Shown: positions 4,592 to 58,218, numbered from the stretch's first letter. The stretch is 64,000 nucleotides of DNA from Chromatiales bacterium (ex Bugula neritina AB1) (GCA_001730015.1 MDLA01000168.1:35741-99740); one strand, 5' to 3'. Translations and numbers: made by a program. Notes: a model not told the origin generated them from the sequence alone.

Positions 4592-5301
4592 GGTGAGCAA
4601 TAGCCCGCCGCCAGCATCGGGCCATTGTTTTTTTCCTGCAGAAAAACGGCGCAGCCACTATTTTCCTGCGCTAGCGCTGGTACAGTCACTGTGGTGGTAT
4701 AGCTACTGTCAAAAAGATCTGCCAATGGCGTTAGCTCTCTAACGACATGATGATTGCGCATTACCTTACCCTGGTTTTCACCATTTTTCACATCGGTGAT
4801 CTGCAAGCGATCAAACACAGCCATCCACAGCCTGGCATCGGAACGACTGCCATCGATAGATATAGTCACATCGTTACCGGATTGCTTCGCTTGTATTTCC
4901 AGTGGCGGCACCGCTACATGCAACGCTTTTTTAATCGCTCCACTACTGGTGCCGACCTGAGCAGTATGACCATTTATAATGATCTGAGGAGTATAGACTC
5001 CGCGCTTGCCTTTTAACGCTCTGGCATTGTAATTTCGCTGTCGTTGTGAATATTCTGCATTCGAGAAGGGATCCTTCCAGATACCCGCAGCTCCATAGTT
5101 TAAATCGTCCCAGTAATCGACATGAAACTCCAGGGCGACAAGATCGGGGTTTTCCGATATCAACTGAGCCAGATATTTATCAGCGGGTGGACAGGAATAG
5201 CACCCTTGTGAGGTGTACAACTCAACTATTGGTGCTGCGAATGAGGTGGCAGCCGATCCGGATAACAAAGCCGCACATATCGTTAACATTGCCGGTCGCA
5301 T
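4588..5301 (-). CDS. DUF1223 domain-containing (thioredoxin-like) secreted protein
   Basis: The motifs ELYTSQGCYSCPPADKYLAQL and EFHVDYWDDLNYG are typical of DUF1223. The start was moved to ATG 5301 (MRPAMLTICAALLSGSAATSFA signal peptide) rather than the track start at 5364. Confidence 0.8.
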   Translation of the reverse strand: MRPAMLTICAALLSGSAATSFAAPIVELYTSQGCYSCPPADKYLAQLISENPDLVALEFHVDYWDDLNYGAAGIWKDPFSNAEYSQRQRNYNARALKGKRGVYTPQIIINGHTAQVGTSSGAIKKALHVAVPPLEIQAKQSGNDVTISIDGSRSDARLWMAVFDRLQITDVKNGENQGKVMRNHHVVRELTPLADLFDSSYTTTVTVPALAQENSGCAVFLQEKNNGPMLAAGYCSP

Positions 5302-47075: not shown

Positions 47076-47515
47076 AGGATGAAGATTCCGTTTGAGTTAT
47101 TTAGTGATTCCGCCCGATTCAACGACCACCCGATTTACCGGAATCCGTGTCGGTAATATCAGCAATTGATAGTTAAAATCGCAGCAAAGTGCCGCCAATA
47201 TCTTTATCAGGAAACAATATGGCGTACGACTGATTACGTGGTAACAGCAGCAAGTAAACCGCCAATAATACCATTTGTGATGCAGTGCTGAAACTCTGGC
47301 CCCGGTATTCACATGGAATTTACACAAAATTGGCCGATTAAACGCATGAATTCAATCAAAAACTTGATTAATTGCTCATAGAGCACTATTTCTCACCACC
47401 ACCGCAATAAACACTCTCAGGCGTAGACAAGAATCTGCGATTTCGCTAAACTGGTGGTTTGGCTTTCTATAAGGTGTAATCGTACGTGAATGCTCGACCC
47501 GCGCGTAAAACATCA

Positions 47516-49348
47516 ATGGACCAGAATCAGCAATCCCGAATCAAGGAGCTGATTGCCAAGGGTAAGGAACAGGGTTACCTGACTTACGCCGAAGTCAATG
47601 ACCATCTGCCCGATGGTATTGTTGATCCAGAGCAGGTTGAAGAAATTATCGCCATGATCAATGACATGGGGATAACCGTCCACGAGGCGGCGCCTGACTC
47701 AGATACATTAATTCTTTCAGACTCCAGCACCCTCAGCCCGGACGATGACGCTGCCGATGAAGCAGCAGCAGCCCTGGCCAGTGTCGATGGTGAGTTCGGC
47801 CGCACCACTGACCCCGTTCGCATGTATATGCGTGAAATGGGCACCGTGGAGCTGCTCACACGTGAGGGCGAAATAGAAATCGCCAAACGCATTGAGGAAG
47901 GCCTAGGGCAAGTCCAGGCGGCACTGGCAAGTTTCCCCTCCACGGTACAGAAGATTCTTGAGCGCTACGCCCGCGTTGCTGCGGAAGAAGCCCGGATGAG
48001 TGATCTGTTGGTTGGTTTCATCGACCCCAACGCCCCGGATGAAATTCCAACTCCGGCACAGCAGCAGGCGAATCGCGAAAAAGCCGCCGCCGAAGCAGAA
48101 GAAAACGACGAAGAAGAAGTAGTCGATACCGGCCCCGATCCGGAAGAAGTGCGCGAGCGCATGGTTGCACTGGAAGAAGCGCACCGCAAAGCCATGGCTC
48201 TTATCGGCAAGATCAAAGACGGCAGCTCCAGTGACTTACTCGCGGCGACGGAAAAAACCACCGCCATGATCATGGAACTGAAGATGTCGCCGAACTTTAT
48301 CGACGAGCTGACCCGTGATCTTCGCGCGCGCGTATACCGCATTCGCACACAGGAAAAATCAATTCGCGATACCTGCGTCATCCGCTGCGACATGCCGCGC
48401 AAAGAGTTCATTGCGACATTCCCGGGCAACGAAATAGATCCCGAATGGCTGCAAAGCCACCTCGATAGCGGCAAGCCATACGCTGCTCGCCTGGCCGACA
48501 ATGCCGACGATATCCGACGCTACCAGCGCCGCATGGCAGTCATCGAAGAAGAAACCACTCTTACAGTCGGCCAGATCAAAGAGATCAGCCGCCGTATGTC
48601 GATCGGCGAAGCCAAAGCACGCCGCGCCAAAAAGGAAATGGTCGAAGCCAACCTCAGGCTGGTAATCTCTATCGCTAAGAAATACACCAACCGGGGCTTG
48701 CAGTTCCTCGACCTGATTCAGGAAGGCAATATCGGCCTGATGAAAGCGGTTGATAAATTCGAATACCGTCGCGGCTACAAATTTTCGACTTACGCCACCT
48801 GGTGGATCCGGCAAGCGATCACCCGCTCTATTGCGGATCAGGCGCGCACCATCCGAATTCCGGTACATATGATTGAGACCATAAATAAGCTCAATCGGAT
48901 ATCCCGTCAAATGCTGCAATCCATGGGTCGGGAAGCGACACCGGAAGAGCTTGCAGAAAAGATGGAAATGCCGGAAGACAAGATCCGCAAAGTACTGAAA
49001 ATCGCCAAAGAGCCGATCTCAATGGAAACCCCCATCGGCGACGATGAAGATTCCCACCTGGGTGACTTTATCGAAGATCAGAATATTTTGTCTCCGGTCG
49101 ATTCCGCAACTTCCGGTGGCCTGGGCGAAACCACTCACGAAGTCCTCGCAAGCCTCACACCACGTGAAGCAAAAGTTCTGCGCATGCGTTTCGGCATTGA
49201 TATGAATACCGACCACACGCTGGAAGAAGTCGGCAAGCAGTTTGACGTAACACGAGAGCGAATTCGCCAGATTGAAGCGAAAGCACTCAGAAAGTTGCGC
49301 CACCCTACCCGCTCAGAGCAACTGCGAAGTTTTCTCGACGGGGAATAG
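47516..49348 (+). CDS. rpoD: RNA polymerase sigma-70 factor RpoD
   Basis: The protein has an acidic region 1 and the rpoD box [39 protein letters not shown]. Region 4 contains [33 protein letters not shown] 47516 ([13 protein letters not shown]) is preferred. Confidence 0.97.
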
Positions 49349-49364
49349 TAAGAGCCAAAACAAG

Positions 49365-49398
49365 ATGCTTTGCCACAAATGCCGGTGGCAAAGCATCT
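49365..49398 (+). terminator. terminator hairpin after rpoD
   Basis: A 13-bp perfect stem GATGCTTTGCCAC / GTGGCAAAGCATC with an 8-nt loop sits 17 nt after the rpoD stop. The U-tract is weak (TATCAAAT). Confidence 0.55.
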
Positions 49399-49487
49399 AT
49401 CAAATGAATTCTCGTTAAATTGACCAAATAATGTGATTCAAAATGACAAGACCTGTCAGATCACATGATGTATAATTAGTACCTCGT

Positions 49488-49813
49488 GGGCCTGTAGCTC
49501 AGTTGGTTAGAGCAGTGGACTCATCAAAATGGTGCGTCTATATTGTAAAATATAGAATGAACGGGATGAATTCAGGGAAACCTTAACAGTCAGGCTGAAG
49601 GCAATCCTGAGCCAAGCCAAAGGTACACCTTTGGAAGGTGCAGAGACTACCTGGGAACTACAGTGTTCTTAATAACAGGCTAGAGCGTCCCGCACCCCAC
49701 CAGCCACAAAGCACACATTGTTGCTGAGGGTGATGAGATAGTCCGCTCCGTACTGAAAAGTTCGGGCAAAGTGAATCCATTGGTCGTAGGTTCAAATCCT
49801 ACCGGGCCCACCA
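49488..49813 (+). tRNA. ileX: tRNA with anticodon CAU (most likely lysidine-dependent tRNA-Ile2, ileX-like), interrupted by a 249-nt intron after anticodon position 36
   Basis: Exon 1 (49488-49524, GGGCCTGTAGCTCAGTTGGTTAGAGCAGTGGACTCAT) joined to exon 2 (49774-49813, AATCCATTGGTCGTAGGTTCAAATCCTACCGGGCCCACCA) folds into a perfect 77-nt cloverleaf with an encoded CCA. The C4:G69 and C5:G68 pairs, the UGGUC variable loop and the location downstream of rpoD match E. coli ileX. Elongator tRNA-Met is not excluded. Confidence 0.85.
49525..49773 (+). ncRNA. group I (IC3-like) self-splicing intron in the tRNA anticodon loop; no ORF
   Basis: Core blocks align with the Azoarcus pre-tRNA-Ile ribozyme as I recall it. 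They are GGGAAACC, the P4 pairing TTCAGGG / TCCTGAG, GAGCCAAGCC, the hairpin CCAAAGG-TACA-CCTTTGG, and AAGGTGCAGAGACTA. A P2-like hairpin TCTATAT / ATATAGA is also present. The insert ends in G (49773), and a 5' GGTG/ATGG segment can pair with the exon CAU. Confidence 0.8.
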
Positions 49814-50141: not shown

Positions 50142-50726
50142 ATGTACCAGGCACAGCCAAAGTCGCCAGATTTCGAACAGCTCTACCGTGAGCTGGAAGC
50201 ACTCCCCGAAAATCAGGTCGGCGAAATAATCAACGGAACGCTGCACGCGAGCCCTCGCCCCTCTGGACCGCACGGACGAGCAGCTTCAGTGATGGGTATG
50301 GACATCGGCACCCCATATGACCGAGGCAGGGGTGGCCCCGGCGGCTGGTGGATCATTTTTGAACCGGAGCTTCACCTGACCGAACAGGTTCTGGTTCCCG
50401 ATATTGCAGGCTGGCACCACGAAACCCTGCCCGAGATCCCGCAAAGCCATCGTTTTACCGTAGCGCCGGACTGGGTCTGTGAAATGCTGTCTCCTTCCAC
50501 CGGTAGAACTGATCGAATCGAGAAGATGCCTATCTATGCCAACGAGGGCGTGAGCCACCTTTGGCTGGTTGACCCGCTGGCACATACACTTGAGACGTTT
50601 GCGCTGCAAAACGGCCGATGGTCTCTGGCAGGCAGTTTCAAAGACAATGATGCTGTATCCATCGCTCCATTCGATGCAATCACACTGGAGCTGACGACGC
50701 TATGGCAAACCAGCGTAAGCAACTAG
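50142..50726 (+). CDS. Uma2-family (DUF820, PD-(D/E)XK-like) endonuclease
   Basis: The 194-aa protein carries ...GEIINGTLHASPRP..., VPDIAGW, APDWVCEMLSPST...DRIEKMPIYANEGVSHLWLVDP and LETF. This layout is typical of Uma2. Confidence 0.75.
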   Translation: MYQAQPKSPDFEQLYRELEALPENQVGEIINGTLHASPRPSGPHGRAASVMGMDIGTPYDRGRGGPGGWWIIFEPELHLTEQVLVPDIAGWHHETLPEIPQSHRFTVAPDWVCEMLSPSTGRTDRIEKMPIYANEGVSHLWLVDPLAHTLETFALQNGRWSLAGSFKDNDAVSIAPFDAITLELTTLWQTSVSN

Positions 50727-50751
50727 ACAGCTAAGCCAAGTCAATTACGCT

Positions 50752-50964
50752 TTATTGATGCAACTGATACCAACCTGACTCACTCAACACGTTAACAATC
50801 AAATCGACATCGTCGGTAAAACGGACCTGCTGCCGACTGAATTCGTCAGTCACCAACAACCCCGTTGTACAGCCACCGACAAACGCAATGTCGTCCAGCA
50901 GTGTTAAACCCAATGCAGAGGCAACACGCGTCAGCATGGAAACGGCAAAATCCAGTGCAGACAC
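50752..50964 (-). pseudogene. N-terminal stump of a nucleotidyltransferase (AbiEii/MNT-like) gene, preceded by the 3' stump of a partner gene
   Basis: Only 70 aa remain, ending prematurely: ...DDIAFVGGCTTGLLVTDEFSRQQVRFTDDVDLIVNV, a GG...D.D NTase-like block. Its GTG start overlaps the stop (TAGTG) of an upstream start-less reading frame ending ...REKKLAAKELRLLLELD (about 50965-51100). Confidence 0.4.
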
Positions 50965-51159
50965 TAATCAAGCTCCAACAGCAATCGCAGCTCTTTGGCC
51001 GCCAGCTTCTTTTCGCGTGAATTGCCGAGTCTTATTGCATCTGCCGGAGCCAACGCAGCGTACAATGTGTCGTCTGTAGCGATAGCCTGCGGAACGGTTT
51101 TATAGAGCGTTTATCTGGTCTAGTTATCCGGCCTATACAAATCAGGCAGCAGCGCCGGA

Positions 51160-51678
51160 TTGGCGAACCCGCGAAATGACCTATCGTATGTTAGGGCAAC
51201 GAAACCGCTACGCGGGTTATCGAGTCTATGTGGCACAGGAAGTGAGGAAGAGTTCCTGCAGTTTTACAGCAAAGGAAATCTGGCTGGGATACTAGGAGGG
51301 AAAACGTTCCGCGATGATATAAAAGAAAGGGAAGATGAGCTACGGGTGTCAGGCGACCTGTCTGAGGAATTGTCGGAACGACCAGACTTGAAGTCAATAG
51401 TCTCAGCAGTAGCCAAAGTATTTAAAACGACACAAGTCGAAATAGTAAAAAATGAACGAGGGCGGAATCCACAAGTGACAATTGCACGGCAACTCGCGGT
51501 CTACTGCTGCCAGCAACTCGGGGATCTGTCCTTGCGTGAAATAGCAGAGAATTTCAATTTCACCAATCAGGGCAGTGTATCAGGAGCGATAACAGCGACG
51601 AAACGACGTCTGGAGAACGGGGAATTAACCAGCGACTATAGGAAGCTGGAAAAATTGTTTGATAAGGCATCTAAATAG
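51160..51678 (+). pseudogene. C-terminal part of an IS200/Y1-transposase-like protein with a DnaA_C-type HTH (N-terminal catalytic domain missing)
   Basis: ERPDLKSIVSAVAKVFKTTQVEIVKNERGRNPQVTIARQLAVYCCQQLGDLSLREIAENFNFTNQGSVSGAI matches the Bac_DnaA_C-like tail of REP-associated or IS200-like transposase-family proteins. No Y1 domain lies upstream. Confidence 0.45.
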
Positions 51679-52330
51679 CGTAATAGGATTGACCCCTTAT
51701 ACATTTTCCAAAAATATCTCTAATACTGTAATTTATTCCATGCTCACCAAATGAATCACGTTCACTATTGAGTAGCCTAACACTTGGGAAACGAACTCCA
51801 GAGAACCCGGCTTCTTGCGCATCCATGCCTAGAGCATCGGTATAAGAATTTCCCCCAGAAGCCGCACTTAATAAGAAACGAAATAGAGATATATGATCAA
51901 TATCATGATGAAAATCGATTTGAAGACTACCTCTTGAAAGAATTTGATAGAGTGTTGGTCCGAACGTAAAATCACATAATCCAGAGTGTTCAATATCACA
52001 ACTTAGTAATATTTTATCGTCCCATACTGAGAGGGATTCGTTTTCAGTAGGTAGTTCCTTTCGGTCGGAGTCATAGTAACAAATTTCTGCTATCGCGCCA
52101 TCAACCGTATTTGAAAAGAAAAATCCCGAAAAACTTCCACGAGGTGCAAATCTATACTGCGCACTCCAAGTTCGATACGATTCGATAAAGTTCAGATAAA
52201 ACCGTTCTGGTGCGCTTTCAAAGTGTTGCGCACTATGAAATCGATAACGTTTATCTGTACTAGTGCATAATTTGGTATTTTTTTTGATTTTTTTTAGTTC
52301 ACTTGAGATCGGGCTATTATTGATTTTCAT
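51671..52330 (-). CDS. RES-domain protein (NAD+-targeting toxin family) without an adjacent Xre/ParS-type antitoxin
   Basis: YRFAPRGSFSGFFFSNTVDGAIAEICYY fits the R...G...Y/F.S....A..E block. GFSGVRFPSVR...GINYSI fits the G..G..(V/F)PS....N block. The coding sequence is AT-rich and its 3' end overlaps the convergent stump at 51160..51678 by 8 nt. Confidence 0.55.
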   Translation of the reverse strand: MKINNSPISSELKKIKKNTKLCTSTDKRYRFHSAQHFESAPERFYLNFIESYRTWSAQYRFAPRGSFSGFFFSNTVDGAIAEICYYDSDRKELPTENESLSVWDDKILLSCDIEHSGLCDFTFGPTLYQILSRGSLQIDFHHDIDHISLFRFLLSAASGGNSYTDALGMDAQEAGFSGVRFPSVRLLNSERDSFGEHGINYSIRDIFGKCIRGQSYYAI

Positions 52331-52615
52331 AATACGCTGAGCGCCATATACAATCTAAGTTTAATCCAAGTGCCACCGATATATGCTTGATCACACGGAT
52401 CTGCGTCAGATATTCGTGCGGCTAATGACTATTTCAAGATTCCTTTCACAGAACACAGAAAAACAGCGGATGAAAGCTGTCCTGTCACATTTAGCAAGAA
52501 ATATCTACTGATCTTGCTGATTCGCACTTCCTTGATTGTTGCAATGGAAATTAGTACAACCGGCACAATAGCAGACAGTGAACAGAATCCAAACAAAGTT
52601 CTGTCACGTTACACC

Positions 52616-52661
52616 CTAATCAGGCCACCGGTTTAAACCGAAAACGGGGCGGCCTGATTAG
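52616..52661. repeat. long inverted repeat / hairpin in a 720-bp ORF-free spacer
   Basis: CTAATCAGGCCACC and its partner GGCGGCCTGATTAG pair at 13 of 14 positions around an 18-nt loop. No adjacent U-tract is present on either strand. Confidence 0.6.
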
Positions 52662-53051
52662 CGTGAAAAGTGAGAATTAACATAGGTGCCAATCATTGTG
52701 GCGAAATGGTGCTGCATGAGATCGCAGATATCTCCGATATTCAAGCACTTGTCAATTGACCAACTGAGTATCAAGGTTAACGGATAGTAAAGAGTTGGCC
52801 CTTACGAATTCCCCTAGAAATCGGACGTTCCCAATAAAACAGAATATGGCAGCCTTTGGCCGAATCCTGCCGATAGTTGCCAGATTTTTCAGGTTTGTCA
52901 ATAACCCATGTGGGTGACTAGTCAATTGGGCGGCATTTCCGAACGTAGACCGGCAGGTGTGTGCCCATTGCGGACGGTCACCGATAAGCTCCAACCGTTC
53001 AATTTTAGTCTCAAGATTGAACAAATCCCTAAGAAATCGGTTAACAGTCCC

Positions 53052-53819
53052 CTACGTCTCAAGCTCCAAATCAGCCATGGAGAACTCTAATATATCTGTT
53101 GATTCCTTCTCTCCTAAGCTAGAGCGTCTGTCAGAGGCAACCAAGGTAAGAGTGTCATTCCCCAGCGCCCAGTCCACCATTCGTAAATAAAAAACCGTTC
53201 CTTGTCTGGCACCTAATATCAGGTCTTCAAGGTCTTCGTCTGAAAGAGAAGCAGAAGTAACAGCTTCAACTAATTGATCCCCATGTGGTAGTGTCTCATG
53301 TTGATGTAAAACAAGGAACTTAGTATTGTCACGATTCATAAAGTCGGCAGATAGAGCTTGTTTTACAGCGGGCTTTGCACACCCATCAGCTATATTTTCT
53401 AAAATCAAAGCAGCCCCTATTCGAATGAAGGGTCTTTCATCTACTACAGAATTAAAGTAGGCATGCCACAGGGAGACATCAAACGGCTCAGGTAATATTT
53501 CTAAATCTAAAGCTCGTAGATCAGAGGCAGCTACCAAGTAGTGTAGTTCTTCTTCATTCGCAAATGAGGTGAAGAATTTGCGTAACTTTCTTTTGCGAGC
53601 CAATTTTGGACTTGCGGCAACTCTGAAGAAGTACCTTTGCACACCCTTTGTCATATGGTACTGAAAAGTCAAATAGCGCTGATAAGATTCAATTTTTGGG
53701 GTATCAGATACCAGATAACCTTCAAGCTTGTCTTTGAACAATTCCTGAGCATTTGTTATCAGTGCCTCAATTTGATTCAAGTATGAATCTGAACTCCACT
53801 GTGTCTTGGCCAATTTCAC
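53052..53819 (-). CDS. heme-oxygenase-like fold protein (Haem_oxygenas_2/HDO-like putative diiron oxidase; inferred)
   Basis: The 255-aa protein looks all-helical. Candidate metal ligands are an ExxH motif (E90..H93 in NEEELHY), E141 (LILENIADG) and HQHETLPHGD (H172, H174, E175, H179, D181). It lies 22 nt downstream of the GNAT gene, which suggests an operon. Confidence 0.5.
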   Translation of the reverse strand: MKLAKTQWSSDSYLNQIEALITNAQELFKDKLEGYLVSDTPKIESYQRYLTFQYHMTKGVQRYFFRVAASPKLARKRKLRKFFTSFANEEELHYLVAASDLRALDLEILPEPFDVSLWHAYFNSVVDERPFIRIGAALILENIADGCAKPAVKQALSADFMNRDNTKFLVLHQHETLPHGDQLVEAVTSASLSDEDLEDLILGARQGTVFYLRMVDWALGNDTLTLVASDRRSSLGEKESTDILEFSMADLELET

Positions 53820-53841
53820 TGCCTCATTCTGAAATACAAGT

Positions 53842-54456
53842 CTAAAGGTATGGCGATCTTATCTGCCTTAGGTGTTCTTTGTCGAGCGCATCAAGGTATA
53901 GCAACACCTGCGGTCCTGCATACTGGTCATGGTACTCCTCAGCTATCTGTCTCCATCCGTATCTGATAAAAAGTGACCTCAACTTTGGCGAAGTATGAAT
54001 CAAACCGTAGGTCCACTCCCGTTTGACGCAATAGTCGAAGCAGAATCTAAAGATGTGTTGTATCGATTTAGCCCCATCCATACTACTACACCTTACGAGG
54101 CGAGACAGAATCACAATGCTGTCCTCGGATTTATCACAAGATGCTTTTTGGGAAACGAAGGCACTAAAATAATCAATGTTGTTTGCAATTGCGACTGGCG
54201 TCAAGCGAAGTGCTGAAAGCAAATTCCCATCTTCGGAAAAAGCTACTATGTGAACAGACTGTGCGTCAGCTTCATCAAACAAGAGTTGGTTGTCATGATC
54301 AGCTGTAGGATATTTCTTTCCTTGCTCTTGAACATATTGTTCGTATCTCAATTTGCCAACACTATCAGGCAATGACAATCCATTTATCACACTCACAGAA
54401 AATCTATTCAAAGCGAAACCCTCTCGACTCTCACAACGCTTATCATTGTCATACAT
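53842..54456 (-). CDS. LuxI/FeeM-like GNAT N-acyltransferase (N-acyl amino acid / acyl-homoserine-lactone synthase superfamily; inferred)
   Basis: The 204-aa protein carries LRYEQYVQEQGKKYP...LLFDEAD...VHIVAFSEDGNLLSALRL. Its C-terminal GLIHTSPKLRSLFIRYGWRQIAEEYHDQYAGPQVLLYLD follows the pattern of Acetyltransf_5/Autoind_synth-type enzymes. Confidence 0.55.
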   Translation of the reverse strand: MYDNDKRCESREGFALNRFSVSVINGLSLPDSVGKLRYEQYVQEQGKKYPTADHDNQLLFDEADAQSVHIVAFSEDGNLLSALRLTPVAIANNIDYFSAFVSQKASCDKSEDSIVILSRLVRCSSMDGAKSIQHIFRFCFDYCVKREWTYGLIHTSPKLRSLFIRYGWRQIAEEYHDQYAGPQVLLYLDALDKEHLRQIRSPYL

Positions 54457-54992
54457 TTAGAGCATCGCCCAAAATCAGCTCGACTGAACGTCTTTGAGAA
54501 AGAATCGGTATGTGCAGTGTCGCAGTGTCGTGGGGTTTTTGGCATGTACGGTAGAGTGGAGATTGCTCTGTTGATCAGACAATACTGCTAAAGATGACTT
54601 CATATACTCCGTTCCCTGGCAGTTCCTGCTCTTCATCTAAACGTAATTATACAGAACCGTGGCTTATCTACTTGTCTCTTACAACACGGTTTGAGAGTTA
54701 TTTCAAATGCACTCGATCACAAAACTCGAACGAGATTCTTCGCAATGCACCAACTGCTACTGTGGGAAACTCATATCTAAGTAATAAGTAACTAATTCCC
54801 ACAATATCCCAATGAGCGAACGACCGGTTTTGGCCGATTCCTGCCTGATTGTCTTGAGCCTAGCCTGACACTGTGCGTAGATTGCGGGCAGGTTTGACAT
54901 CTTATGTTGTAACATCTTCTGTGATCAATAGTAACTTTGTTTCCGTGCGGAATCTTCCACCTCGCTGCTATGCTGATAGGCAGTATTTGGCG

Positions 54993-57769
54993 TTAGTGGA
55001 AAGTGGGGCCGCTCCGTTTTCGTGATTGTTGGTGTTGTTGTGTCATCCATTCTGACCACAACGGTCCACGCAACTCGGTCGGCGCCATATAGAGTTGAGC
55101 ACGATGCTTGTGACGGGTCATGGAAACGTAGGCCAGATGTTTATCCATGGTTTTGGAGGCCAGCACAAATGTGTGATCGACGCTCGCCCCTTGGCTTTTG
55201 TGAATGGTGGTGGCGTATCCATGATCAAAATCAGCGTAGTGCCTCGGTGAAAAACTCACCAATCGCCCCTCAGCAGCGCCGTCGCTGTCGAGGCACAGTA
55301 ATCTCATCACCGATTGATTCCACCGAGCCAATCATGCCATTGCGAACGTTTAAATCACGATCGTTTTTTGTCAGCAGTAGTCGATCACCCACAGCAATAG
55401 AACGCAGCCCGTGAGCAGTGTTAACCCGATGTTCCTCTTCGAAGTCACCGCGTTGCTGTTTGCCCGAACGAATTGTTTGATTAATCTTGTGTACATCCAC
55501 CCGTCGGTGCGCCAACGCCAGCCGCCGGTGTCGGACGCCGCTCTCTCGTTCATCGGCCAAATAGTCACGAGCCAACGCTTCAATCGCCTGAGCTTGATCA
55601 TCACGACGGTGCACGTCACCATTGGTATCGTAAGCCGCCAGTGCCGCACTGATGTGACCGCGAGCCAGTTGAACAGAGGCTTGTCGTTGCCAGGATGATG
55701 ATTGCCGACGAATTTCACTAAGCTCGGCGGTGTTAACCAGTCGAGTCATATTACGTAGCGGAGTGCCCGCATTTATGGGTTGGAGTTGTTCTGGATCACC
55801 GACGAGCACTAGCTTTGCCCCCGCCGCTGTTACGTGATTGACTACTTCAACCATCTGGTGTGTACCGACCATGCCAGCTTCATCCAGCACCAGCACATCG
55901 CCAGCATTAAGTGTGTGCTTGCCGTTTTTCCAACTATACATCCAGGAAGCTAAGGTTCTGCTGTCAATTCCCGAGGCCGTTTGCAATCCGTCGGCTGCTT
56001 TTCCTGCGATGGCCGCACCGATAACTCGACAACCTTGTTTCGTCCACGCCTGATGAGCCGCTGCCAGCATCGTACTTTTACCCGCACCCGCCAACCCGAC
56101 CACCACACTCAACTGCTGCGCGCCCACAATGTGTCGAATGGCTTGATCTTGTTCATCACTTAGGGATGCACCAACCCGGTTCTGAAGTTGAGAGTTTTGA
56201 TGTGAGATCGCGTCATCAACATGGTGAGAGGCCACGCCGTGGCAGCTATTTCTGTCCATCGCTAGCACCTCTTCACGTAACTTGTCGCTGAGCGCCTGCA
56301 GAGTCCGAGTGGTATACCGAGGGTTTGCATCGTTGGTGACGAGTACCAATTCATCTGACTGCAGGGTTTGTTCTACGGCCTGCTGGAGGGCTACCGGGTA
56401 TTCAATGTAGTGGCCCAGTCTTCGCACAATATCGTTGCGGGTAAAGAACTCATTCTTGTCGCTAATCAACTCCAGAATGGTCTCTGGTGATTGTTGAATT
56501 GTTAGTCGAGCGGATACGGCTACTTCATCAACCGGTAGAATCAGCGGTTGCATCGGGTCGACTTGTAAACTGCGACCCACAGCGTGGTTGAGTGTTTTTT
56601 GCGTAAGTGCATGGCGAAAACGCATAGGTTCCGCCTGGGCCTGCAGAGTTCGGCGCTCGTATAACTGCCTCTGTATAAGGGTTTCTTGTTCTTCGCGATC
56701 TAATTCGTCGAGTTCATCCAGACGCTGCGCTCTTTGTTGCTTCCCAATTGTTTGAGCTTGTCCTGTTACGCGTTGCCACAACGCACGCAACCCATGAGGT
56801 TGATCTATGTCACTTTGTTCAAACGCCGCTGCGCGCCGCTGTTTTTGATTTGTATCAAGATCAGCACGTGCTGCTCGTTGCGCGGTGGCAAGTGTTTTTC
56901 TTTTGGTCTCGAATGCCGCCAAATCGAGATCGATTATCGTGTCGGCGTCCTTGCATTGTATTTGCAAATCATCGCTGGGCTGTGTGTGTAGTAGTGCAAC
57001 TGCCCCAGCCACATTAGGCAAGCTATCGGGCATACCCAAACGCGCCCGAACATCTTTGGCTTTTGCGCCCAGCCAGCGCGACAATGCGTAAACTTCTCCA
57101 AATCGGTCTACAGCAACATGACCACGTCGATCCCCTTTAGCCAGAATGAAACCTCGCTCTTTTAGAGCATGGGCAAACGCCGTTCGGGAATCTGAGGCCT
57201 CCCAGCAGCTACGAAATGACTTTTTTTAGCTCTTGTGGATTTTGCTTTACACGGACTGCCTGTTGTTTCTCACCTTGGCTGAAACTGAGCGGATCGCGTA
57301 AATTTTTATCCTAAAACCCTACTGGCATTTCCCAGCCGTGCTCCAGGTAGAGTTGGCGGGAGATGTCCCGCAGCTTCATCTTAAAGTGCGGAAGATTAAT
57401 GCTCTTCATCGTATCAGCGTCGATCCGTGACCAGACGCAATGCGCGTGGCGACGACCGTACTTTTCATGTAAAACCACCGCACGAGGCTGATCGCTTAGA
57501 CCCAGTTTGCTTTCGATACTCGAAAGGGTAGCTTTGAAAACATCTATTTGGACGTTAGCGCTCTCTGGCGGGTTCAGACTGAGTGAAAACAGAAATTGCT
57601 GACACTTAGTACCTCTCGATACTGCGTGCGCCTCTTTGAATGCGTCTGGAAGATTGTCGGAGACAAACCCGCGCAACTGGTGAACGGTCACATGATCATT
57701 GTCATCCGTATTGAGCAGATGACGGGCAAGCTGGCTGCCGCCACCACGCTGCGATCCTTTTAAGATCAT
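54993..57769 (-). pseudogene. relaxase (N-terminal nuclease domain) fused to a TraA/RecD-like P-loop helicase, disrupted at three sites
   Basis: The pieces are 57769-57311 (MILKGSQRGGG...HEKYGRRHAHCVWSRID), 57310-57085, 57084-55270 (VVGLAGAGKSTML...VLVLDEAGMV) and 55331-54993 (DHGYATTIHKSQGASVD...YVSMTRH). The lesions are an in-frame TAG at 57311-57313, a 1-nt frame change at the T7 run 57221-57227, and a 1-nt frame change near 55302. Confidence 0.8.
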
Positions 57770-58218
57770 GATAGGGAGGATTTGTCGCGCAGACCGACGG
57801 CGGTGACCAGTGTGACGCGCATCTCCTGTATGTAGCGATACGCCTCCTCAATCTGTTCCAGTACCTCGGTGTTGACAATCAACGTGCCGCAATTGGCGTG
57901 ATGTGCAAGTTGGTTGAGGTTGTTGGCGATACGCGTTTGACCGAGTGGGGCCAGTAATTTCGCAAAGGCTTGCTGGTCCGCTACAGGCTGGTACCTCGCG
58001 CGACTTCGTTTTGATCGCTGCGAGCCAAACAGGCATTCGCGAATGTAGGCACTGACAGGTTGACCGGCCGATAGCTTTTTCAGCTGAGCGCGTTCCTCGT
58101 CTGTCACACGTAGTGTGATCGGTGAGGAGGCAATCCTTCGGCGAGCCTGCGGCTTTACGCTTTCAGAAAATGTGGCGTGTAAGCTTGAGGATTGTGCCTT
58201 TTTCGTCTCGGAAGTCAC
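57766..58218 (-). CDS. mobC: MobC-family relaxosome accessory protein
   Basis: RVTDEERAQLKKLS (RHH-like) and IANNLNQLAHHAN (the MobC NLNQ block) are present. Its stop overlaps the relaxase start by 4 nt. Confidence 0.8.
   Translation of the reverse strand: MTSETKKAQSSSLHATFSESVKPQARRRIASSPITLRVTDEERAQLKKLSAGQPVSAYIRECLFGSQRSKRSRARYQPVADQQAFAKLLAPLGQTRIANNLNQLAHHANCGTLIVNTEVLEQIEEAYRYIQEMRVTLVTAVGLRDKSSLS

Follow-up and report, generated by a model that had tools for sequence, protein, structure and literature searches.

The DNA analyzed here is a 64,000-nucleotide stretch from Chromatiales bacterium (ex Bugula neritina AB1) (GCA_001730015.1, MDLA01000168.1:35741-99740), referred to as the window, in which positions are counted from the first letter. 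Positions 49488 to 49813 of the plus strand hold a tRNA gene with the anticodon CAU that is split by an insert of 249 nucleotides (nt). An initial annotation, made from the sequence alone, had read this insert as a group I intron lying between positions 36 and 37 of the tRNA. The interrupted gene consists of the following parts:

49488-49524, plus strand: 5' exon of the tRNA-Ile2 gene, tRNA positions 1-36 including 20a, ending in the anticodon CAU (ARAGORN on the joined exons; 100% match to the intronless genes of the relatives L122 and L128)
49525-49773, plus strand: intron, 249 nt, intron position 1 being window position 49525
49774-49813, plus strand: 3' exon of the tRNA-Ile2 gene, positions 37-76, CCA encoded (ARAGORN, intronless alleles)

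Detection and boundaries of the intron

A standard ARAGORN run called no tRNA in the unedited 64-kb window. When the segments 49488-49524 and 49774-49813 were joined, the program returned a tRNA(cat) of 77 nt; its cloverleaf is standard and contains the wobble pairs U6.G67 and G27.U43, in agreement with the flawless cloverleaf of the initial annotation. The Rfam family Intron_gpI (RF00028) matched positions 49513-49765 of the plus strand over its whole model (1-253 of 253) with 83.6 bits and an E-value of 8.5e-20, well above the gathering score of 50, and was the sole family at threshold in the window. Run in intron mode, ARAGORN proposed a tRNA-Phe(gaa) with a 232-nt intron, a call with the right span but the wrong intron placement. 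It was dropped because it disagrees with the group I rules, by which a U precedes the 5' splice site and a G ends the intron, and with intronless alleles.

Such alleles were found in two relatives at the same rpoD-proximal locus. The tRNA(CAU) genes of L122 (4891-4967) and L128 (4363-4439) match the joined exons at every base. Since they equal the predicted ligation product, in which the junction is CUCAU/AAUCC (reading ...GGACUCAU/AAUCCAUU...), both splice sites (49525 and 49773) are fixed, and the insertion point falls between tRNA positions 36 and 37. At the DNA level, these two alleles correspond to a precise excision that restores the host gene. The Rfam score, the joined tRNA and the intronless alleles thus bear out the initial reading of a group I intron that splits a tRNA(CAU), and every sequence element listed in that annotation was found in its place. 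Its description of the insert as noncoding likewise held, as no open reading frame (ORF) of more than 45 amino acids (aa) was found inside the insert, where the longest wholly internal one has 29 aa. The longest ORF overlapping the intron is a spurious antisense frame of 80 aa, and the ORF scan of the intron revealed no homing endonuclease.

Identity of the interrupted tRNA gene

The top match of the joined tRNA in E. coli, with 84.4% identity over the full length, is annotated by PGAP as a tRNA-Ile with a CAT anticodon. An alignment that included a second CAT tRNA-Ile showed that the pairs C4:G69, C5:G68 and G27.U43 as well as the UUGGUC variable region are common to the window tRNA and E. 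coli ileX, but not to metT/metU. C4:G69 and C5:G68 are determinants for TilS. In the window tRNA, these pairs stand together with a CAU anticodon and elongator features. The location points the same way: the gene starts 140 nt after rpoD, identified by an upstream PRK05658 match that upholds the rpoD adjacency noted in the initial annotation, and in E. coli K-12 ileX likewise follows rpoD, at a distance of 710 bp. Moreover, rpoD lies upstream of the tRNA(CAU) gene in at least 12 related loci, among them L004 and L116, which are beta-proteobacterial.

That the host gene is instead an elongator tRNA-Met, or an initiator, with no part in the decoding of AUA is highly improbable. ARAGORN gives the label tRNA-Met to every CAU anticodon, and classifiers sometimes mix up Met and Ile2. 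However, the best full-length match in E. coli is an annotated tRNA-Ile, metT/metU differ at the very positions shared with ileX, the location after rpoD agrees with ileX, and an initiator is ruled out by G1-C72 and the anticodon stem. By these sequence features, the window tRNA is of the lysidine tRNA-Ile2 type, predicted to read AUA, and is the orthologue of the ileX gene that follows rpoD, as had been proposed from the same pairs and location.

Secondary structure of the intron

A model comprising the helices P1 to P9.0 was tested on an alignment (A1) of tRNA and intron from 15 sequences, the window and 14 homologues. The following elements were placed (intron numbering in brackets):

49520-49536, plus strand: P1, exon CUCAU and intron C1 with the internal guide GGUGCG at 49531-49536 (intron G7-G12); Rfam alignment
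49537-49556, plus strand: P2 (intron 13-32), 8 bp with a GUAA (GNRA) tetraloop; compensatory change in all 8 pairs
49562-49568, plus strand: P3 5' strand CGGGAUG (intron 38-44), partner 49686-49692; 7 bp, 100% paired in the 15 sequences
49572-49610, plus strand: P4 (49572-49577 with 49605-49610; intron 48-53/81-86) around J4/5 and P5/P5a; P4 100% paired; Rfam alignment
49581-49601, plus strand: P5/P5a (intron 57-77); four covarying pairs in P5
49611-49639, plus strand: P6/P6a (intron 87-115), a GC/GU base followed by CCAAAGG-UACA-CCUUUGG; 7-bp P6a 100% paired, five pairs compensatory
49643-49649, plus strand: P7 5' strand G-A-GACUA with bulged A (A120) (intron 119-125), partner 49739-49744; invariant in 15/15, fits the Rfam consensus and Azoarcus
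49650-49679, plus strand: extra hairpin at the P7.1 position, between P7 and P3' (intron 126-155); insertion relative to the Rfam model, placed by minimum free energy (MFE) folding
49686-49692, plus strand: P3 3' strand CGUCCCG (intron 162-168); alignment A1
49693-49732, plus strand: P8 (intron 169-208), extended 40-nt hairpin with internal loops; basal 5 bp 98.7% paired, distal length variable
49739-49744, plus strand: P7 3' strand UAGUCC (intron 215-220); invariant
49745-49773 region, plus strand: P9.0 (49745-49746 with 49771-49772; intron 221-222/247-248); covaries as G.U/A-U/G-C in 6/5/4 sequences
49748-49765, plus strand: P9 (intron 224-241) with a GAAA loop and one U-U mismatch; six covarying pairs, GAAA invariant
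49773, plus strand: terminal omega-G (intron 249); invariant, placed by P9.0

In this model 95.6% of the alignment cells are paired, compared with 36-44% when the partners are slid by 1-3 columns. Two-sided (compensatory) change was observed in 41 of the 100 pairs, and 0 of 500 shuffles reached the observed values. Covariation is seen in the tRNA stems, in P2, P5, P6a, P8 and P9 and in the distal part of the extra hairpin, while P3 (six pairs invariant, one alternating between U.G and C-G), P4, P7 and the U.G wobble of P1 are invariant among the 15 sequences. All helices of the P3-P8 and P4-P6 domains can be drawn together with the P3/P7 pseudoknot; P3 and P7, whose consistent pairing the initial annotation had named beside an Intron_gpI match as a check on its intron call, are paired across all 15 sequences. 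MFE folding of the insert alone gives P2, P3, P4, P5, P6a, the extra hairpin and P8 (z = -2.77).

All 15 homologues have the U36.G wobble of P1 (49524 with 49532; intron G8) at the 5' splice site, along with the A-U, C-G and C-G pairs beside it. P1 is enclosed by the anticodon stem of the tRNA, an arrangement known to be important in the Anabaena tRNA intron. An additional GC-rich insertion of 30-45 nt in the P1 loop, between the 5' splice site and the guide, was seen in three loci (L104 820-1191, L035 2538-2908, and L108 518-910). The extra hairpin has a CCUG/CAGG base and a GGAAC/GUUCU distal stem that covaries and is 100% paired, and its 3' internal loop, CUURAUNACAGG, is almost invariant in the 15 sequences. 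A tertiary contact between this internal loop and the GAAA loop L9 is a reasonable guess from this conservation.

P7 is the guanosine-binding site in group I introns, and how the helices are arranged suggests the following mechanism. In the precursor, the anticodon CAU and the neighboring exon bases would pair with the guide GGUGCG to form P1 with its U36.G wobble, and free guanosine bound in P7 would attack after U36. Through P9.0, the terminal G (49773) would next take up this site, and an attack after this G by the 3'-OH freed at U36 would link the exons and yield the 77-nt tRNA. Because C34 would be buried in P1 until splicing, the formation of lysidine by TilS would have to follow splicing.

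Intron presence and absence in close relatives

Loci of RpoD homologues with 84-96% identity were fetched from public assemblies and inspected for the intron:

L123, RpoD 96%: intron present, 93% identical to that of the window
L122, RpoD 95%: intronless
L124-L127, RpoD 91%: intron present, 277 nt
L128, RpoD 88%: intronless
L129/L130, RpoD 86%: no tRNA after rpoD

The spacer between rpoD and tRNA-Ile2 is itself fluid, as L123 has an added tRNA-Asp(GTC) at 4875-4951 and L129 (4355-4850), like L130, carries no tRNA there.

The exons are identical (77/77) in all five lineages, with and without the intron, whereas the tkt-rpoD DNA next to them differs by 18-27%. This identity despite the divergence of the neighboring DNA suggests that the interrupted gene is under the same constraint as the intact gene. 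Among the close intron-bearing relatives the intron core is identical, and the differences in P2 are paired compensatory changes (UCUAUAUU/AAUAUAGA, UCACUAUU/AAUAGUGA, and UCACCAUU/GAUGGUGA); the others fall in L5, distal P8 and P9. Equal constraint and maintained helices are what a splicing-competent intron predicts.

These comparisons bear on the possibility that the interrupted gene is a decaying pseudogene whose intron has lost the ability to splice, and that the reader of AUA is encoded elsewhere as a further tRNA-Ile2 or a tRNA-Ile(UAU), which we consider extremely unlikely. The rest of the genome could hold another reader, P9 contains a U-U mismatch, and intronless alleles exist in relatives. 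Decay, however, would preserve neither exons that are 100% identical to functional-looking intronless genes across 18-27% neighbor divergence nor catalytic-core positions that are invariant in 15 lineages and peripheral helices that are kept by compensatory changes.

Some of these points, along with several others, also weigh against a functional intron in general. A second intact tRNA-Ile2 is possible, and the P9 mismatch is found in the window's clade. P3, P4 and P7 never vary, so that covariation neither supports nor contradicts the model there. P10 has at most 1 bp, although a short P10 is usual in tRNA introns, in which the anticodon stem aligns the exons. The promoter scan did not find a good -35 element upstream of the tRNA, and splicing, its autocatalysis and the order of the processing steps are all deduced from the sequence. 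On balance, the intron is real and probably functional, and it is very probable that 49488-49813 represents an ileX orthologue split by a 249-nt ORF-less group I intron of a lineage common to many gammaproteobacteria.

Judged from the analogous case of beta-proteobacterial genomes in which Ile2 seems to be missing, the genome likely contains a single, interrupted copy of tRNA-Ile2. Splicing would at most be essential wherever the interrupted gene is the sole copy, and the intronless alleles in relatives indicate that the intron is dispensable for the lineage. Since such a gene is missed by standard finders (no call by ARAGORN, and tRNAscan-SE is not designed for such introns), the genomes appear to be without an AUA tRNA. 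The tRNAscan-SE 2.0 paper reports 36 genomes that seemingly lack tRNA-fMet or tRNA-Ile2 owing to group I introns (PMC8450103).

Homologues and host range

To place the intron among its homologues, one genome per species was scanned with the core pattern AGCCAAG N8-38 AAGGTGYAGAGACTA, which gave at least 120 loci. The figures in this section refer to the matches listed. These loci span many phyla, and for 82 of them the host gene was resolved by the group I rules combined with a strict anticodon-arm filter. The resolved hosts include at least 31 tRNA-Leu(UAA) genes split at 34/35 and at least about 20 tRNA(CAU) genes split at 36/37, followed by tRNA-Arg(CCU) (at least five), Asn(GUU), Thr and others.

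The tRNA(CAU) introns sort into three sequence types. A short Azoarcus-like type of 204-223 nt was found in Polynucleobacter (L004), a beta-proteobacterial metagenome-assembled genome (MAG; L098) and Neisseriaceae (L116). The second is a Burkholderiales/Comamonadaceae type (L032, L041, and L045, together with Runella L107). The type of the window was found at full length in at least 14 loci, with 71-79% identity to the window over tRNA and intron, and the genomes concerned are all labeled as gammaproteobacteria or unclassified Proteobacteria. Its hosts include Woeseiaceae, Steroidobacteraceae (2), Lysobacter (2), Rhodanobacteraceae, Azotimanducaceae, Pseudomonadales (2), the K189A clade and others; one of the Lysobacter hosts is an isolate, L. 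daejeonensis GH1-9. Where the flanks permit checking, most introns of the window type lie after rpoD. The rarity implied by the initial annotation is therefore not upheld, as the same intron occupies the same gene in many genomes. The host of the window itself looks like a gammaproteobacterium, as had been assumed, with the closest named RpoD matches coming from Granulosicoccaceae and Gammaproteobacteria MAGs (72-73%) and a Woeseiaceae MAG (70%).

A 2014 review gives tRNA group I introns only for cyanobacteria, alpha- and beta-proteobacteria, which is also the range stated in the initial annotation. The Ile2 list in File S5 of the tRNAscan-SE 2.0 paper contains Azoarcus, Acidovorax, Burkholderia, Polynucleobacter, Rhodoferax, Laribacter and other beta-proteobacteria, Desulforudis, and two planctomycetes, and names no gammaproteobacterium (PMC8450103). 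Likewise, the literature searched contained no paper that connects any of Lysobacter, Woeseia, Steroidobacter and Xanthomonadales with group I introns. The element thus belongs to a kind already described; its host class is absent from the lists in the literature searched, yet the element is common in the public genomes of that class. The finding extends the known range to many gammaproteobacteria, in most checkable cases after rpoD, but leaves the understanding of group I introns unchanged.

The core pattern was also found in genomes labeled as archaea, namely L012, L043 (Pacearchaeota) and L069 (Methanosarcinaceae), and in many candidate phyla radiation (CPR) loci among L001-L120. The resolved hosts of these archaeal and CPR loci are often tRNA-Asn(GUU) or a tRNA that is ambiguous between Thr and Asn. 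Such matches suggest that tRNA group I introns are far more widespread than the classical lists indicate.

Gain, loss and transfer

A neighbor-joining tree of the tkt-rpoD DNA joins the intron-bearing window and L123 (200/200), with the intronless L122 next to them (198/200), while the intron-bearing L125 and the intronless L128 lie outside with their order unresolved. On this sequence comparison, the presence of the intron is patchy among relatives with identical exons, indicating that it is gained or precisely lost on short time scales.

Whether the intron arrived recently by horizontal transfer, through reverse splicing or recombination with a transferred allele, or is an old resident lost by relatives was weighed on several lines of evidence. 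The patchy pattern (window, L123 and L125 with, L122 and L128 without the intron) would fit a recent arrival, as would the presence of mobile-element genes next to the tRNA and an intron distance between L123 and L124 of 0.04, smaller than expected from their RpoD distance of 0.10. However, many distant gammaproteobacterial families have this intron type in the same gene and after rpoD, no homing endonuclease is encoded in the intron, and, given outgroups that bear the intron, a history of two precise losses is no less parsimonious than one of gains. Intron and RpoD distances also correlate overall (r = 0.86, Mantel p ~0.002); among the distant lineages alone, the correlation is weak (r = 0.50, p ~0.09). 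A recent arrival appears possible but rather unlikely.

A further point in favor of transfer comes from viruses. A scan of viral contigs (at least 120 rows) revealed the P7-hairpin-P3' signature of the window type, GAGACTACCTG...ACAGG...GCGTCCCGC, in psbA introns on IMG/VR contigs among the matches listed, suggesting that the core moved between host genes at some time.

In one of these contigs (L252 6500-11200, IMGVR_UViG_3300042987_001812), psbA, which encodes D1, is in at least seven pieces, and a 4.4-kb span immediately following a PhotoRC-II motif contains eight Rfam group I matches. In three others (L254, L257, and L258), two introns interrupt psbA, located after about residues 185 and 334. 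The window-type signature is carried by some introns of these four contigs.

Genomic context

Upstream of the tRNA gene, the following features were identified:

47486-49348, plus strand: rpoD, upstream neighbor (NCBIfam PRK05658 RpoD, 889.8 bits)
49363-49398, plus strand: terminator-like inverted repeat of 14 pairs after rpoD (assigned to the minus strand by the tool)
49471-49476, plus strand: TATAAT hexamer, a possible -10 element read by eye, 12 nt before the tRNA 5' end

The start of rpoD is probably about 9-10 codons further downstream, because close homologues have 610-611 aa compared with 620 aa here, so that the GTG start of the listed ORF (47486-47515) is probably too far upstream. 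An exact search for the 620-aa product, like one for GapA of the window, gave no match in the collection searched. The consensus promoter scan gave nothing useful for the tRNA, and the hexamer at 49471-49476 was not called.

The region directly downstream of the tRNA (50142-58218) looks like the remnant of a mobilizable element. It contains genes for a Uma2-family endonuclease, a DnaA_C helix-turn-helix protein, a FeeM-like acyltransferase and a NikA/MobC protein, and its relaxase is seemingly split into an ORF with a MobA/VirD2 N-domain (57311-57769) and an ORF for a TraA-like helicase (55270-57084). Neither an integrase nor a repeat of the tRNA 3' end, the mark of an integrated island, was found within the window. 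In three IMG/VR entries (L255, L256, and L259), predicted proviral regions start inside a window-type tRNA(CAU) intron, and such provirus calls abutting the tRNA-Ile2 gene elsewhere suggest an integration hotspot.

Comparison with known introns

For comparison with the Azoarcus pre-tRNA intron, the ribozyme sequence was taken from a paper as a 197-nt template, which is without the first 8 nt of the 205-nt intron, and was aligned with the three types (alignment A3). The lengths of 249 and 205 nt given in the initial annotation are therefore correct. Both introns reside in tRNA-Ile2 at the same 36/37 site, and in both a GUG guide reads the CAU of the 5' exon. They have in common the core blocks AAUUCxGGxGAAAC (J3/4-P4-J4/5), GAGCCAAGC, GAAGGUGYAGAGACUA and AUAGUC as well as a GAAA L9, and neither contains an ORF. 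Both introns have 29 nt between P7' and omega-G. Between P7 and P7', Azoarcus has 38 nt and the window intron 89 nt; the hairpin at 49650-49679 (30 nt) and a longer P8 account for the difference. The initial annotation had placed the extra length mostly in the P9-like part, which is incorrect.

By this alignment, the core of the window intron is homologous to that of the Azoarcus tRNA-Ile intron, to which a conserved hairpin at the P7.1 position is added. Azoarcus-type introns have no helix between P7 and P3' and carry CCUAAG/UAUGG receptor motifs in P5 and P8, whereas the window intron lacks these motifs and has the conserved 30-nt hairpin and a 40-nt P8. The hairpin is also absent from L116 and L004, which together with L098 represent true Azoarcus-type introns in Neisseriaceae, Polynucleobacter and a beta-proteobacterial MAG. 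The label "Azoarcus-type" of the initial annotation thus fits as far as gene, site and core are concerned, whereas the periphery departs from it. Since intron classes are distinguished by, among other features, a helix at the P7.1 position, IC3, the subgroup named in the initial annotation, is a provisional label here.

The Comamonadaceae/Burkholderiales introns agree with the window intron in gene (tRNA-Ile2), site, core blocks, GGUG guide and GAAA loop L9. In L032, L041 and L045 there is also a hairpin between P7 and P3', with an asymmetric loop of the AAUAA type, but the sequences of P2, P3, P6 and the hairpin differ, and BLAST matches are partial (130-140 nt). The genes concerned are likewise missed by standard tRNA finders, and tRNAscan-SE 2.0 flags group I introns in tRNA-Ile2 of Acidovorax, Burkholderia, Rhodoferax and others (PMC8450103).

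The introns of cyanobacterial and plastid tRNA-Leu(UAA) and of alpha-proteobacterial tRNA-Arg(CCU) are also small, ORF-less anticodon-loop introns with the core AGCCAAG...AAGGUGYAGAGACUA. They differ in their host tRNAs and, for tRNA-Leu, in the site (34/35), and their likeness to the window is limited to the core, apart from about 35-37 nt of the 5' exon in a few. Introns in cyanophage psbA are known (Zeng et al., 2009, cited in PMC3984707). The viral psbA introns have the exact P7-hairpin-P3' signature of the window type, but they interrupt a protein-coding gene, show weak likeness outside a core of about 90 nt, and in some cases reach about 800 nt.

These comparisons tentatively suggest an undescribed subclass of tRNA-Ile2 introns, in which the CUURAUNACAGG loop of the P7.1-position hairpin would replace the receptor contacts of Azoarcus. 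Such a subclass would share this element with cyanophage psbA introns, would have spread in gammaproteobacterial families with turnover in the absence of a homing endonuclease, and would provide the sole route of AUA decoding in its hosts, a combination that we regard as conceivable but doubtful. In any case, the intron-bearing and intronless alleles with identical exons, together with the conserved extra domain, offer a comparative system beside the Azoarcus ribozyme.

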